From the IMG/VR virus record IMGVR_UViG_648276647_000011: 8,509 bases of DNA; one strand, given 5' to 3'. Positions 3,141 to 8,509 of the stretch are shown here, in pieces (position 1 is the stretch's first letter; the number at the start of each line of letters is the position of its first letter). Under the pieces are notes generated by a model. The model made no database searches, had not been told where the DNA came from, and saw only the letters and a list, made by a program, of their open reading frames with translations. A program made the position numbers and the translations under genes. Source of the stretch: a virus (Duplodnaviria > Heunggongvirae > Uroviricota > Caudoviricetes).

Positions 3141-3180
3141 AATAAAAACCCCACTGCAAAAGGTGCAGTGGGGTGGAGTT
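3141..3180. terminator. bidirectional-looking intrinsic terminator; stronger in minus orientation
   Basis: 10-bp GC-rich stem CCCCACTGCA (3149-3158) / TGCAGTGGGG (3164-3173) with loop AAAGG. On the minus strand it is followed directly by TTTTTATT (reverse complement of 3141-3148). On the + strand the T-run (3176-3179) is separated from the stem and interrupted. Confidence 0.55.
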
Positions 3181-3186
3181 TTATAT

Positions 3187-5856
3187 ATGAAATCTGACAT
3201 CAGAAAAGAGATTATTAACCGTCTTATCCGTGATTACAACTTCAAAGAAGAAAATAACTACCTCCGGTATGGTGTTTGTCCGCAATGTGGAAAGAAAGAG
3301 TTGTTTACCAGCCTTGAAAGGCCGTACATCGTACACTGTGGGCGCGAAAATAAATGCGGTACAGACCTGCTGACCAAAGAACTTTACCCGGATGTGTTTT
3401 CATCATGGTCAGATCGTTATATCAGCACGAAAGACGAGCCATATGCAGCGGCGGCAGCTTATCTTCAGGAAGCGCGCAATATTGCTGTGGGGCCACTGAA
3501 GGGCGCATTTACTCAGGAGCGATACCAGGACAAGGAAAACGGCGAACAGGCCGCTACTGTGCGTTTTACGCTGGCTGACGGCGTGTGGTGGGAGCGCATC
3601 ATAGACCGGCCGGAACGTTTCGCGCGTAAGGCGAATTTTTCCGGCAGCTACAAGGGGTTGTGGTGGGCTTATCCGGGAGCTGATTTAAGCAAGGCCAACG
3701 AAATCTGGATTTGTGAGGGCATCTTTGATGCCATCAGCCTTAACCAGAATGGCATTGCAGCCGTTTCTGTCATGTCTGCCGTGAATTATCCTGATAAGGC
3801 GCTGGAAGAACTGGCAAAGCTGTGCGGAGATAATCCCCGTCCGGTTATTGTGTGGGCGCTGGATAACGGGCGTGCGGGTGAGCGTTACGCGAAAAAACAT
3901 TCAGAACGCAGCGCCGAAGATGGCTGGAGAACGGCGGCGGCGTTACCGGGTAAAAACAGCAATAAACGCGACTGGAATGATTTACACGTCGCCGGAAAGC
4001 TGCGTGGCCATGATGTGAAAAGATACCGTCATTACGGTGATTTATTGCTGGCGAAATCTCCGAGAGATAAGGCGCTGATAATATTTTCCTTTCGTGAGCG
4101 GAAGGAATTTCATTTTACTTTTGATAACCGTGTTTTCTGGTTCAAACTGGACATTGAGCGCTATATGAAGGCTGTTGAGCGTGCCAAGAATGAGCGAAAT
4201 GTTGATGAGGATGAAGCGCGCAAAATTGCACTTAAGGAATCTGGTGCAGTAAAAGAAATCGCAAACTGTAACCCAGCGCCGCTTTATTACATTCGAAATA
4301 ATGACACGGATGAAGCATGGTATTACTTCCGTGTTACGTTCCCGGATGGTGCTACGGTGAAAAACACCTTTACATCAGGACAATTAACATCCTCATCTGA
4401 ATTTAAAAAACGCCTGTTACACGTGGCAAAAGGCGGTATTTATACTGGAACGACTACGCAGCTTGACGCATTAATAAAAAATGACCTTCCCGCAATAAAA
4501 GAGGTTATTGGTCAGGATTTTATCGGATACAACAAGGCGATTGGGGCATGGCTGTTTAATGATATTGCTGTTTACAAGGGAAAAACTTATGAAATCAATG
4601 ACGAGGATTATTTTGAAATTGATGGCATAAACGCAAAACCATTAAGCGAAAAACCCACATTACAGATTAACTACAAAAAACCGGATGAGTTTACAGAGTC
4701 TTGGGTGGAAGATCTCTGGCTGGCTTTTGGTGAAAAGGGAATTATTACCCTGGCTTTCTGGTTGGGCTCCCTGTTCAGCGAACAAATCCGAGATAAAGAA
4801 GAATCCTTCCCCTTCCTTGAAGTCACCGGGGAGCCCGGAACGGGTAAATCAACATTGATTGATTTTTGCTGGCGGTTGTGCGGTCGTGACAACTATGAAG
4901 GCGTTGATCCAACCAAAGGATCAGAGGCGGGCTGGAAGCGTACCTTTGGACAGGTCGCCGGATTACCTGTTGTTCTGATTGAAGCGGACCGGGGAGACAA
5001 TGCGCAAAAAAGAGGTGCGTTTGACTTCGATAACCTGAAAAGTCTCTATAACGGCGGTGGTATCGGCGTTCGTGGTGTTAAGGCCAACAATAACAACACC
5101 TATGACCCGGATTTTAAGGGCGCTATCGTGATTGCGCAGAATGCGCGGGTAAACGCCTCTCCGGCAATTATTGAGCGCCTGATACGTATATACACCGATA
5201 AAAAACGCCATTCACCTGATACCCGCCTGGCGGCGAGACGGCTGGAACTTTACCCCGTCGAGAAGGTATCTGGGTTTATTCACCGAGCGGTAAGTCAGGA
5301 ACGGGCGATTATGCAAACGTTCCTAGAAGTATCTCCAGCTGAAACGGAACGCCTTTGCGGATGCGAAAATATTCGCCATCCCCGCATCGCTAAAAATCAC
5401 GCACAACTTATCGCGCTGGTCAGAGCGCTGAAATGCGTTATTGATATCCCGGATGAATGGCTTGATGCCACATGTCTGGAACTGGAACAAATGGCAACAG
5501 CGCAGGTTAAAGCGGCGGCGGCTGATTTACCGGAAGTGATGGAGTTCTGGGAGGCGTTCGACTTCCTGGACGGCATAACAAAATACGGTGTAAACCACTA
5601 CGGCAAGGGATGCCGTGAGGGGATTGCTATCAGTATTCCGCAACTGGCACAGGCTGCCGCCATTCACCGCGTGGAGATCCGAACTGACCGCGAAATGATT
5701 GAGTTGCTCGGAGCCGGACGTTCCCGACCTTTGACAGGCCGCAAAACCATTCGTAGTGAGGTGTCCAGACAGGCAAACGCCGGAAGAGGGGTCGCCGAGG
5801 CCAGAGAGCCGGAAGTACTGAAATGCCGGATATTCAGTTACAAGGAGGGGCGCTAA
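3187..5856 (+). CDS. phage/plasmid primase-helicase of the P4 alpha type: N-terminal zinc ribbon, TOPRIM primase, P-loop NTPase (helicase)
   Basis: Long ORF. Cys cluster CPQCG...HCGRENKCG (nt 3277-3360). TOPRIM-like ICEGIFDA (nt 3709-3732) and LDNGRAGE. Walker A GEPGTGKST (nt 4828-4854). ATG 3187 with SD GGTGGAG (3172-3178) is preferred over the track GTG at 3163, which lies inside the terminator stem. Confidence 0.88.
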   Translation: MKSDIRKEIINRLIRDYNFKEENNYLRYGVCPQCGKKELFTSLERPYIVHCGRENKCGTDLLTKELYPDVFSSWSDRYISTKDEPYAAAAAYLQEARNIAVGPLKGAFTQERYQDKENGEQAATVRFTLADGVWWERIIDRPERFARKANFSGSYKGLWWAYPGADLSKANEIWICEGIFDAISLNQNGIAAVSVMSAVNYPDKALEELAKLCGDNPRPVIVWALDNGRAGERYAKKHSERSAEDGWRTAAALPGKNSNKRDWNDLHVAGKLRGHDVKRYRHYGDLLLAKSPRDKALIIFSFRERKEFHFTFDNRVFWFKLDIERYMKAVERAKNERNVDEDEARKIALKESGAVKEIANCNPAPLYYIRNNDTDEAWYYFRVTFPDGATVKNTFTSGQLTSSSEFKKRLLHVAKGGIYTGTTTQLDALIKNDLPAIKEVIGQDFIGYNKAIGAWLFNDIAVYKGKTYEINDEDYFEIDGINAKPLSEKPTLQINYKKPDEFTESWVEDLWLAFGEKGIITLAFWLGSLFSEQIRDKEESFPFLEVTGEPGTGKSTLIDFCWRLCGRDNYEGVDPTKGSEAGWKRTFGQVAGLPVVLIEADRGDNAQKRGAFDFDNLKSLYNGGGIGVRGVKANNNNTYDPDFKGAIVIAQNARVNASPAIIERLIRIYTDKKRHSPDTRLAARRLELYPVEKVSGFIHRAVSQERAIMQTFLEVSPAETERLCGCENIRHPRIAKNHAQLIALVRALKCVIDIPDEWLDATCLELEQMATAQVKAAAADLPEVMEFWEAFDFLDGITKYGVNHYGKGCREGIAISIPQLAQAAAIHRVEIRTDREMIELLGAGRSRPLTGRKTIRSEVSRQANAGRGVAEAREPEVLKCRIFSYKEGR

Positions 5857-5858
5857 AC

Positions 5859-6862
5859 ATGCCGATCAGAAAGATGCATGATGGGCGGTGGCTGCTCGAT
5901 ATCAGGCCATGCGGACGTAAAGGGAAGCGCATCAGAAGAATATTTGACAAAAAATCGATAGCTACAGCAACTGAACGGTACATCATAGCGAACGCCGAAA
6001 AGCGCGAGTTTATACAGGGCTATCGTGACCGGAGAACGCTTAGCGATTTACTGGAATTGTGGTGGGTCTATCACGGTCAGCACAGGCGAAAGGCAAACAC
6101 GGATAAACAGCAGCTTGGCAAAATTATTAATGAGCTTGGAGCTGACATGTTTGCGGTGGAACTCGACAAATTAAAAATCATTGCATGGCGATCGCAGAAA
6201 ATTGCAGAAGGATTAAAGCCGTCCTCAGCAAACAGATACATGAACAGATTATCGGGGATGTTTACAGCCCTGAAAAAGATCGGTTTGTGGGATGCAGAGC
6301 ATCCGGTTCGTGGTATTCCTGTTCTTTATGTAAAGCAGCGGGAAATGGCCTTTTTATCAAAAAACGAGGTCACATTGTTGCTTGACGGGCTGAATGGAGA
6401 TCAACGAAGGGTTGCGCTCTTGTGTCTTTGTACCGGAGCCCGCTGGAGTGAGGCCAGCAGATTGTATGGAGAGCAAATAGTTCATAACAGAATAACGTTT
6501 CTGGAAACCAAAAACGGTAGAAAAAGAACGGTGCCTGTGTCGCAGGAAATATGCGATGCCGTAAAAACAAAAGAAACCGGGCGACTGTTTGATGTGAAGT
6601 ACAGAGAGTTTTGCCGGGCATTAAAAAAATAAAACCCGATTTACCGAGGGGGCAGGCTGCGCATGTATTGCGGCATACATTCGCCAGTCACTTTGTGATG
6701 AACGGTGGCAACATTCTTGCGCTACAAAAAATCCTTGGGCATGCGACAATTCAGCAGACTATGGCATACGCACATTTTGCACCGGATTATCTGGCAGATG
6801 CCATGAGATTTAACCCGGTAGCCAACATAGTGATCACCGAAGAAAAAGAGCCAGCAGAGTAA
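5859..6862 (+). pseudogene. int: tyrosine integrase, P2 Int-like, interrupted by a single-base frameshift at an A7 run (6623-6629); may be a pseudogene, a sequencing error or a recoding site
   Basis: Two consecutive ORFs (frame 0 5859-6632; frame 2 6611-6862) that together align without gaps to recalled P2 integrase (e.g. KPSSANRYMNRLSGMFTAL, CTGARWSEASRL, IKPDLPRGQAAHVLRHTFASHF, QTMAYAHFAPDY). Box II HxxR and the presumed catalytic Tyr (nt 6767-6769) are only in the second frame. ATG 5859 lies 2 nt after the primase stop, with AGGAGGGG at 5843-5850. Confidence 0.85.
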
Positions 6863-6891
6863 CCCGCAGAACGCTACATTCACAGCAAAAG

Positions 6892-6918
6892 AGGTCAGTT
6901 TCCCGCTGACCTTTTTTG
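6892..6918 (+). terminator. rho-independent terminator downstream of int
   Basis: Stem AGGTCAG (6892-6898), 7-nt loop, stem CTGACCT (6906-6912), followed by T-run 6912-6917. Confidence 0.75.
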
Positions 6919-7110
6919 TTGGCCAGAACCAACGGTAACAGCAATGCAATGGTGGCCATATTGCAGTGGTGCCGCCATCAATTTTTTGCTCCCCCTGATT
7001 ATCAGAAAGAGTCAAACAGTGGTGAGATACATTTCAATCACAGAGAGTTAATGAAAGTGAGACAGAGTGAGTGAGTTTAATTAACATTTTAAAGGGTCGC
7101 GCTAAAGTTT

Positions 7111-7430
7111 GGGGGGGGATGCGCAAAGCGGTTACAACGGTTACAAATTTAAAATTGCTTATTTTTGTATTATATATCAATATATTATAACTGGTCCGAT
7201 GAGTTACAATAGCGGTTACAACGCGGTTACATGTAACCGTTTTGTTAGGTTACAGGCGGTTACAGGTTAAGTTTTTAATTGATTGATAATAAAGTGCTTT
7301 TTGAAACCTGTAACCGTTGTAACCGCAGTGTAACCGCAAAGCGGTTACAAACAATATCCATTAAAATCATGTTTTTAAGTGGTGTTTTTGACTGTTGTAA
7401 CCGTTGTAACCGCTTTGCGCACCCCCCACC
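7111..7430. repeat. iteron array (heptamer GGTTACA/TGTAACC, 13 exact copies plus 1 variant) bounded by 36-bp inverted repeats; putative replication origin
   Basis: Inverted repeats 7111-7146 and 7395-7430 are 34/36 identical as reverse complements. GGTTACA at 7130, 7139, 7214, 7225, 7248, 7258, 7343 and AGTTACA at 7202. TGTAACC at 7232, 7309, 7318, 7329, 7396, 7405. Perfect palindrome GGTTACATGTAACC at 7225-7238. Hairpin TGTAACCGC-AAA-GCGGTTACA at 7329-7349. AT-rich blocks at 7147-7200, 7265-7308 and 7350-7390. Confidence 0.6.
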
Positions 7431-7653
7431 GGATTATGAGGCAGAGCCCCAAAACAACTGGTCTAACCTATAACAAAAATGCAACATCAATCATTGATTT
7501 TTTGGGGCTGTCAGTCACGGGGAGTTGCCCTGTTGTTTGGCAGAAAAATGAAGTATGTACATGCGCGGCGGGGATGGTAAAAAACGTAATACACGCGGCG
7601 CAGTTGCCATAAAAAATTTCTCAAAAGCACTCTTTTTGACGCTATTGTTCATC

Positions 7654-7680
7654 TGCACAAAAGTGCACAAATTTGCACAA
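7654..7680. promoter_or_regulatory. three direct TGCACAA repeats at exact 10-bp phasing; candidate operator or activator-binding array
   Basis: TGCACAA at 7654-7660, 7664-7670 and 7674-7680, so one helical turn apart. A fourth copy lies at 7746-7752. A 10-bp perfect palindrome CCAGTACTGG sits nearby at 7711-7720. Confidence 0.4.
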
Positions 7681-7973
7681 TTTTTTAGAGTAACTTTTTG
7701 CCCATCCGGCCCAGTACTGGCGCGCCCGGAGGGCGATTTCGTGCGTGCACAAAAAACGGTGAGTTTTTCGCGCGCAGGTGACGGGGGAACAGCACGCGTT
7801 TCAGGGGGGTAAATTACATTTTCGCTAAAGACTGCGGGAATGCCCGACCGGGTTAGTTTTATCGCCAGCCAGAGCCGTTCTTACGGCAAGAGAGAACTGA
7901 TACGGGGAATGTGACGAGTGAGCATGGGAACGGTGCGCCTGTGCGTAATACGCGGCGACTGCTGCGGGTTTAT

Positions 7974-8036
7974 TTGATACGGCCAGAGGGGGCGGCAGAA
8001 GATATAATAGGTTAAATTTCACACCAGTAAGAGGAG
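7974..8036 (+). promoter_or_regulatory. putative promoter and RBS of the ogr-like gene
   Basis: Perfect -10 TATAAT at 8003-8008. The only -35-like hexamer, TTGATA (7974-7979), is 23 bp upstream, which is non-canonical. SD GAGGAG at 8031-8036, 6 nt before ATG 8043. Confidence 0.3.
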
Positions 8037-8042
8037 CGTGAT

Positions 8043-8225
8043 ATGTCTTTCCCTTGCCCGGCCTGTGGCGCTTCAGCCCGCACCCGTGGTCGTTCGTTGG
8101 AAGAACACGAACAAAACATCTACAGAACGTATTACCAGTGCAATAATATTGAGTGTGGGGCTTGTTTTTGTACGCTTGAGTCGTTTGTACGCATTACTAA
8201 GCGCAGGAAGTCGAAAACTTCATAG
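8043..8225 (+). CDS. ogr: Ogr/Delta-family zinc-finger transcription activator (P2 Ogr / P4 Delta-like), 60 aa, single domain
   Basis: ATG 8043 with strong SD. Cys4 pattern C5-X2-C8-X24-C33-X4-C38. ARTRGRS...YRTYYQCNNIEC...FCTLES resembles P2 Ogr (ARTSRYI...ERYHQCQNVNC...F.TYES) from memory. Confidence 0.8.
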   Translation: MSFPCPACGASARTRGRSLEEHEQNIYRTYYQCNNIECGACFCTLESFVRITKRRKSKTS

Positions 8226-8275: not shown

Positions 8276-8509
8276 TTACGTCGTGTGGTTCTGGTCATTT
8301 GCCCAGGCCCACACATCCCCCGCTACATTGCGCCCGTTGCGGTCTTCTTCCTGCGTTTCCCCGGCCTTAATTCCCTGACTGATAAACATTCTGACGCACT
8401 GGGAGTAGTTCATCTCTCTGTCCTCACATATCTGATTTATTTTATGGTCGATTTCGAGCGGAATACGAATACAGCGTAATACGCATCGCATTTTCTTTTG
8501 TTTTTTCAT
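8276..8509 (-). CDS. hypothetical small protein, 77 aa, possible ribbon-helix-helix (CopG/Arc-like) DNA-binding fold; start at or beyond the window edge
   Basis: Minus-strand ORF whose ATG is the last 3 bases of the window. RCIRIPLEIDHKINQICEDREMNYSQCVRMFISQGI fits a beta-strand/helix/helix pattern. Convergent with ogr. Preferred over the overlapping + strand ORF 8225-8479, which has odd composition and no RBS. Confidence 0.4.
   Translation of the reverse strand: MKKQKKMRCVLRCIRIPLEIDHKINQICEDREMNYSQCVRMFISQGIKAGETQEEDRNGRNVAGDVWAWANDQNHTT

Follow-up and report, generated by a model that had tools for sequence, protein, structure and literature searches.

An integrase gene, int2, is interrupted here at the point where a run of seven adenines (A7) passes directly into a stop codon, and a shift of a single base would restore the full-length enzyme. 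The question raised by this locus is whether the interruption is a programmed recoding site, a genuine mutation, or an error in the sequence record. The first-pass annotation had offered three readings: (a) a read or assembly error in the homopolymer; (b) a real 1-bp deletion; and (c) recoding. Readings (a) and (b) both survive the analysis presented below.

Anatomy of the split gene and its element

The window (the whole 8,509-nt stretch of DNA analysed) matches scaffold GL883893.1 of E. coli M605 at 8,509/8,509 bases (100% identity). The Logan assembly of read set SRR024152 provides a second sequence identical to the window, A7 included. The host of the window is a P4-like satellite prophage in E. 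coli M605, with its insertion point between gcd and hpt. It carries the features by which P4-like satellites are recognised: an end integrase, an AlpA-type regulator, an alpha-like primase, an Ogr/Delta activator and a C4/cI-type immunity RNA. A P2-family major capsid gene lies downstream of this satellite core. The gene order is:

Immediately left of window position 1, next to gcd: end integrase, 399 aa, intact in M605 and seen in L004 and L001
Second in the order, after the end integrase: an open reading frame (ORF) of 350 aa
After the 350-aa ORF: AlpA (Pfam AlpA)
After AlpA: immunity region (Rfam C4 antisense RNA and isrK)
Between the immunity region and the primase gene: small ORFs
3163–5856, + strand: toprim primase/helicase-like gene, 897 aa (Pfam Toprim)
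Directly downstream of the primase gene: int2, the gene under study
6892–6917, + strand: terminator-like hairpin, AGGTCAG-N7-CTGACCT followed by a T-run (the stem is listed on the − strand; the T-tail of the + strand was read directly)
Between int2 and Ogr/Delta: about 1.2 kb of non-coding DNA
After the non-coding stretch: Ogr/Delta (Pfam Ogr_Delta)
Beyond Ogr/Delta, outside the window: P2-family capsid gene and mazEF

Because the primase gene stops 2 nt short of the int2 start codon, the two genes are probably co-transcribed, and the terminator-like hairpin would close the primase-int2 transcription unit. The immunity region contains matches to isrK (52 bits, 1771–1852, + strand) and to the C4 antisense RNA (75 bits, 1878–1965, + strand) in Rfam, together an immunity RNA region of the P4/P1 type; both fall within a RefSeq ORF annotated as host cell division inhibitor Icd-like protein (1663–2190). 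Downstream of int2, the motif CGGTTACA occurs 12 times in both orientations between 7129 and 7412, against 0.28 expected, and the array is flanked by a 36-nt inverted repeat (7111–7146 and 7395–7430). By analogy with the P4 ori and crr, this array looks like an iteron-type replication origin.

Within int2, the elements of the split are:

5859–6632, + strand: upstream part of int2, 257 codons and TAA
6623–6629, + strand: A7 tract, where the run is one base short; read in the 0 frame, it has the form of an A_AAA_AAA heptamer
6630–6632, + strand: TAA stop put in frame by the lost A
6629–6862, + strand: downstream part of int2, in the −1 frame, reading IKPDLPRGQAAH...EPAE and a stop

Direct reading confirms the A7, the stop and the split gene that had been described at these positions: in the frame opened by ATG 5859, positions 6621–6632 read TTA AAA AAA TAA. 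The same ATG is the start of the int2 ORF in relatives, and a further open ATG lies upstream at 5823. From the arm-binding N-terminus, the upstream part runs through the core-binding domain and halfway into the catalytic domain; its 257-aa product has a record of its own, EGI18127.1, under the name 'integrase [Escherichia coli M605]'. Pfam assigns the core-binding domain, Int_N, and the leading half of Phage_integrase to the upstream ORF, and the terminal portion of Phage_integrase to the downstream one. In alleles with eight adenines (A8), bases 6630–6632 are shared between an ATA (Ile) and an AAA (Lys) codon.

Reading on in the −1 frame from 6629, or adding one A, gives ...RALKKIKPDLPRGQAAHVLRHTF... 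up to the stop at 6860–6862. The two operations yield an identical protein of 334 aa (translation of 5859–6629, then on from 6629). When this repaired protein is aligned to P2 integrase (PDB 5c6k), the match extends over residues 49–322 (E = 6.5e-80) and crosses the junction without a gap, which bears out the expectation that a −1 shift or an extra A continues the P2-Int-like alignment and restores box II and the catalytic tyrosine. By tblastn, the repaired protein matches P2 and P88-like integrases over residues 1–321, so that the homology to P2-family tyrosine integrases is full-length and includes the arm-binding N-terminus. Its active-site residues are R195, K218, H269, R272, H295 and the nucleophile Y304. 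The 257-aa truncated protein keeps R195 and K218, and the remaining four lie past the stop in the other frame. The R-K-HxxR-H-Y catalytic set is thus missing from any one polypeptide of the window as deposited and is present in the A8 relatives.

The A7 heptamer is no commoner in the window than chance, with six A7/T7 matches observed and 7.9 expected from shuffled sequence. The idea of a split enzyme, in which an 83-aa C-terminal ORF is translated separately from TTG 6611, was set aside: the start is weak, the layout is not conserved and the fragment has no protein record.

Tract length among relatives

The first-pass annotation had proposed comparing the homopolymer in orthologous elements, and this comparison returns A8 in all intact relatives. 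The finished-genome set comprises 29 E. coli genomes carrying int2 at 97.4–99.4% identity. All 29 have A8, the matching span being one base longer than the query, and a 93-base probe centred on the A-run matches each of them with a single gap and none exactly (0/29). Direct alignment shows A8 within 140 identical flanking bases, and RefSeq annotates an intact int2 coding sequence of 1,005 bp (334 aa) in the A8 finished genomes. A8 is likewise found in 10/10 draft contigs encoding the exact repaired protein, in both matching metagenome contigs (2/2, too few for a frequency), and in Escherichia sp. MOD1-EC7003, the sole other species with this allele group when GTDB is represented by one genome per species. 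The remaining GTDB matches are integrases 35–52% identical from elsewhere in Proteobacteria. Altogether, A8 within a single ORF is found in all 29 finished genomes and at 13 further loci.

Among contigs more broadly, the exact repaired protein is encoded on 171 (339 index blocks) and the truncated protein on five or six. The interrupted, or OFF, form accounts for about 1% of contigs (5–6, against several hundred ON). A7 recurs in Logan contigs of SRR7012942 (L006 and two similar contigs) and of SRR31383135 (L007). L006 differs from M605 by 10 synonymous changes in int2 and is only 97.8% identical to it over 7 kb; in L007, int2 has a single difference from the M605 gene. Each of these two haplotypes has an A8 twin: L006 and the A8 contig L009 are identical over 7,284 nt except for a single A, as are L007 and the A8 contig L011 over 3,996 nt. 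M605 and its closest relative, L014, are separated over 12 kb by the A, one G-run indel and 28 substitutions, and within int2 itself, one substitution and the A are all that distinguish M605 from L011, L014 and L017.

Because the A8 twins of two A7 haplotypes are identical to them over 4–7 kb except at that base, A8 is the ancestral state and A7 a recurrent contraction or miscall. The same comparison puts the number of separate origins, or miscalls, of A7 at two to three or more, each of them very recent.

The tract itself is a peculiarity of one allele group. In the alignment of homologues, only window-type alleles encode L-K-K-I-K as TTA AAA AAA ATA AAA. At the same position, the P88-like phage integrases (79–82% identical) read CTG AAA AGA GTT AAG or similar, P2 reads TTA CGC AGA GTG AAA, and both of the remaining satellite int2 types lack a homopolymer. 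In each of these P88-like, P2 and other satellite homologues the gene is one uninterrupted ORF. Since dN/dS of int2 among window-type alleles is 0.02–0.2, the gene is under purifying selection in relatives, with the intact form as its functional state.

Mutation, miscall, switch or recoding

Taken in aggregate, these data lead us to infer, with a probability of roughly 0.5, that the A7 of M605 is a genuine and recent replication-slippage mutation, real rather than a read error, and not programmed. The event would begin with an ancestral A8 in int2 (TTA AAA AAA ATA AAA, L-K-K-I-K) that loses one A outside any programme. The main product would then be the 257-aa truncated protein, predicted to be unable to cleave DNA because it lacks H269, R272, H295 and the nucleophile Y304. 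Any full-length Int2 would arise only by adventitious slippage, with either the ribosome slipping by −1 on A_AAA_AAA ahead of the stop or RNA polymerase occasionally adding an A. From this we infer that expression of full-length Int2 from the A7 allele is no more than leaky.

The alternative that survives best is a sequencing artefact, in which M605 really carries A8 and an intact int2, the reads undercall the 8-base run, and both assemblers reproduce the miscall. This is a serious contender, if somewhat short of an even chance. Long homopolymers are undercalled by 454 pyrosequencing, the method reportedly used in the Broad M605 project; a literature search on the M605 sequencing platform gave no relevant match. 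The Logan contig derives from a single early read set, SRR024152, probably the same data as the GenBank assembly, and is not an independent witness. Consistent with a miscall, A7 occurs in 0/29 finished genomes, and on two of its three backgrounds this base is the only difference from an A8 twin in 4–7 kb of sequence. M605 also has a second private homopolymer-length difference 1.2 kb downstream, at 7804–7809, where it reads G6 and every anchorable relative reads G5. The G6/G5 difference alters the last codons of a hypothetical ORF (7555–7812), which encodes 85 aa here and 90 or 119 aa in relatives.

Against an artefact, two other haplotypes also show A7, in read sets that are later than that of M605 and unrelated to it. 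Three contigs represent one of these haplotypes, and noisy long reads are an unlikely source for one of the three, which is 20 kb long. M605 further agrees with its relatives at the fixed-length runs of at least seven bases (G8 at 7111–7118, T8 in the flank, and every 7-mer), and its 4.5 kb of conserved chromosomal flank is free of indels. The A7 lineages with an A8 twin show zero additional divergence, which fits a very recent mutation and a miscall equally. Elsewhere in the window, a non-coding A8 between alpA and the immunity region (1570–1577) is A8 in six relatives, A7 in seven and A6 in one; tract slippage in DNA is therefore common in this element.

Whether mutation or miscall, the feature is an ordinary one of an already known kind. 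The A7 of int2 belongs to the class of homopolymer frameshift pseudogenes and draft-assembly miscalls, and nothing sets it apart from them: like these, it is a single-base change in a run of at least eight, in a gene otherwise equal to intact alleles, appearing sporadically and recurrently on different backgrounds.

A further possibility is that A8 is kept as a contingency locus, with DNA slippage switching int2 off (A7) and on (A8). Such phase variation is very unlikely here. Recurrent frame-shifting changes in the tract are indeed seen, with A7 on three haplotypes and at least two or three separate origins, although read errors may account for some of the calls. The all-A codon choice is also kept by every window-type allele (up to dS = 0.11), but that dS is too low for retention of AAA codons to be informative. 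Common ON and OFF states, as a switch would produce, are not found; the rarity of OFF alleles among contigs and finished genomes alike agrees with mutation-selection balance. An A9 allele was not seen, A8 is short for a switch, and other int2 types have no tract at all. An extended version, in which a maintained A8 switch on a helper-phage-type integrase is combined with a trickle of full-length enzyme from translational slippage on A7, such that the satellite hedges between Int2-ON and Int2-low, is similarly far-fetched.

The least credible reading is programmed −1 ribosomal frameshifting, in which A_AAA_AAA and the stop would keep full-length integrase rare and give a truncated regulatory product; comparison with relatives effectively refutes it. 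The phase of the heptamer is right, and shifting by −1 yields exactly the full-length integrase. In this the site resembles those of dnaX and IS3-family transposases, where an in-phase X_XXY_YYZ heptamer of lysine codons allows a −1 shift to fuse two ORFs. In contrast to int2, the dnaX and IS3 sites use A_AAA_AAG, are accompanied by Shine-Dalgarno-like and/or hairpin or pseudoknot stimulators, and are conserved among relatives. The A_AAA_AAA form has been reported to be less shift-prone than A_AAA_AAG in E. coli.

A stimulator at such a site would be a hairpin or pseudoknot 5–9 nt downstream and/or a Shine-Dalgarno-like sequence 10–14 nt upstream. Downstream, the RNA folds of 6630–6720 (z = +0.57) and 6632–6665 (z = +0.93) are not more stable than shuffles, which removes support from the candidate hairpin suggested earlier. 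No recoding element was found near the site in Rfam, either at the gathering threshold over the whole window or at E <= 5 over 6450–6900. Upstream of the heptamer, direct reading shows GAGAG/GGG only and no GGAGG-like element, hence no good Shine-Dalgarno-like element in the 10–14 nt interval. The two-ORF layout is likewise not conserved: all relatives, the twins of identical haplotype included, have A8 and a single ORF, and the A-tract is missing from int2 homologues of P88-like phages, of P2 and of other satellites. Reading (c) fails on each of these counts.

That the A7 allele yields some full-length Int2 is nonetheless plausible, as an adventitious rather than a programmed product. The sequence C-AAA-AAA alone gives 25–60% −1 frameshifting in an E. 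coli over-expression vector (PMC1851650), and some −1 read-through of int2 is plausible by this precedent, although the pDEST17 figures come from T7 over-expression near a start codon, unlike the int2 site. RNA-polymerase slippage has been shown to be efficient with runs of nine A or T, and frameshifting that compensates for a homopolymer indel without being programmed is an established category (PMC5009743). In the C-AAA-AAA of pDEST17 attB1 (PMC1851650) and in G-run mutants of herpesvirus thymidine kinase (PMC5009743), slippage partly compensates a homopolymer indel. By analogy with these cases, compensatory slippage is the best description of what could occur on the A7 allele.

A second integrase in a P4-like satellite

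The suggestion that loss of int2 locks the element in place is unsupported, as an intact 399-aa integrase is present at the element end next to gcd. Because this end integrase is intact, integration and excision of the satellite are probably unaffected by the break in int2. A sister element, L012 (GCA_012990665.1, AATOGO010000001.1), has the same core of primase, int2, ogr, capsid and mazEF genes, but its end integrase (420 aa) and its AlpA are not those of the M605 element, and it is inserted beside lacY, not at gcd/hpt. As L012 shares int2 and sits elsewhere with another end integrase, the comparison indicates that the end integrase, not int2, sets the insertion site; in sequence, L012 looks like a case of modular swapping of the integration module.

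The satellite ends adjoin an integrase other than int2. Near-identical copies of GTGTATCAATnnGTGTATCAATAT lie just inside both element ends (L004, about 2893–2920 and 15612–15640), one upstream of the end integrase and the other between mazE and hpt; these repeats may be integrase-binding or att-associated. For int2 itself, a blastn comparison (word size 7) of 6800–8100 with the int flanks of Chuche, P88_4B11, Shae_phiSM and P2 returned nothing significant as an attP-like site.

The right part of the element, beyond the window (L001 10768–13385; L004 12816–15433), encodes a P2-family major capsid protein of 423–449 aa. A 236-aa ORF precedes the capsid gene in L001 and L004, and in both a PemK/MazF-MazE toxin-antitoxin pair occupies the right end. 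In the relative 52F4 (L002), the capsid module is located elsewhere in the element and a Hok/Gef gene replaces the toxin-antitoxin pair.

The int2 gene is an accessory tyrosine integrase gene of the P2/P88 type, second and internal in the satellite. The repaired protein shares about 51% of its residues with P2 Int (PDB 5c6k/5dor) and, over its full length, 79–82% with the P88-like integrases of Xuanwuvirus (Chuche, P88_4B11, PhiR44_2, Shae_phiSM). All share a length of 334 aa, the arm-binding N-terminus and the R, K, HxxR, H and Y residues. Whereas int of P2 and P88-like phages belongs to a C-int-attP module next to cox, int2 sits after the satellite primase gene, and blastn finds no phage-like attP after it. 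Unlike the phage integrases, int2 is interrupted in M605, and its C-terminal tail differs from theirs: the tail DYLADAMRFNPVANIVITEEKEPAE is common to satellite int2 versions and missing from the phage proteins.

At least three types of integrase occupy the int2 position in satellites, 47–54% identical to one another, and each has its own closest phage integrases:

Window type (window 5859–6862): Chuche, P88_4B11, PhiR44_2 and Shae_phiSM, 81–82%
L018/L020 type (L018 2200–3210; L020 2218–3228): P88, 77%
L019 type (L019 2230–3231): vB_EcoM-569R5 and 705R2, 85.7%

A Chuche-type phage integrase gene (about 91% nucleotide identity) is present in 305 of 5,426 finished E. coli genomes. Among the first 60 of these 305 listed are at least five of the 29 satellite-bearing genomes (STEC306/307/308, STEC316 and 08_3323), a hint that the satellite co-occurs with a prophage of matching integrase type. 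Regarding second integrases of P4-like satellites, the literature search found only the remark that some P4-like elements are flanked by two integrases (PMC10085698), and that satellite census contains no description of a helper-type integrase inside a satellite.

As a recoding candidate, the locus is of no importance, being a routine homopolymer indel or miscall. It carries a practical lesson: where an in-phase A7 and a stop are found in a broken gene, close relatives should be compared before recoding is invoked. Of more interest is the incidental outcome that a P4-like satellite family keeps a second integrase, whose gene immediately follows that of the primase and is subject to purifying selection. 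The satellite int2 types have as their respective counterparts the integrases of different P88-like (P2-family) phages, and the role of this second enzyme is worth an experiment.
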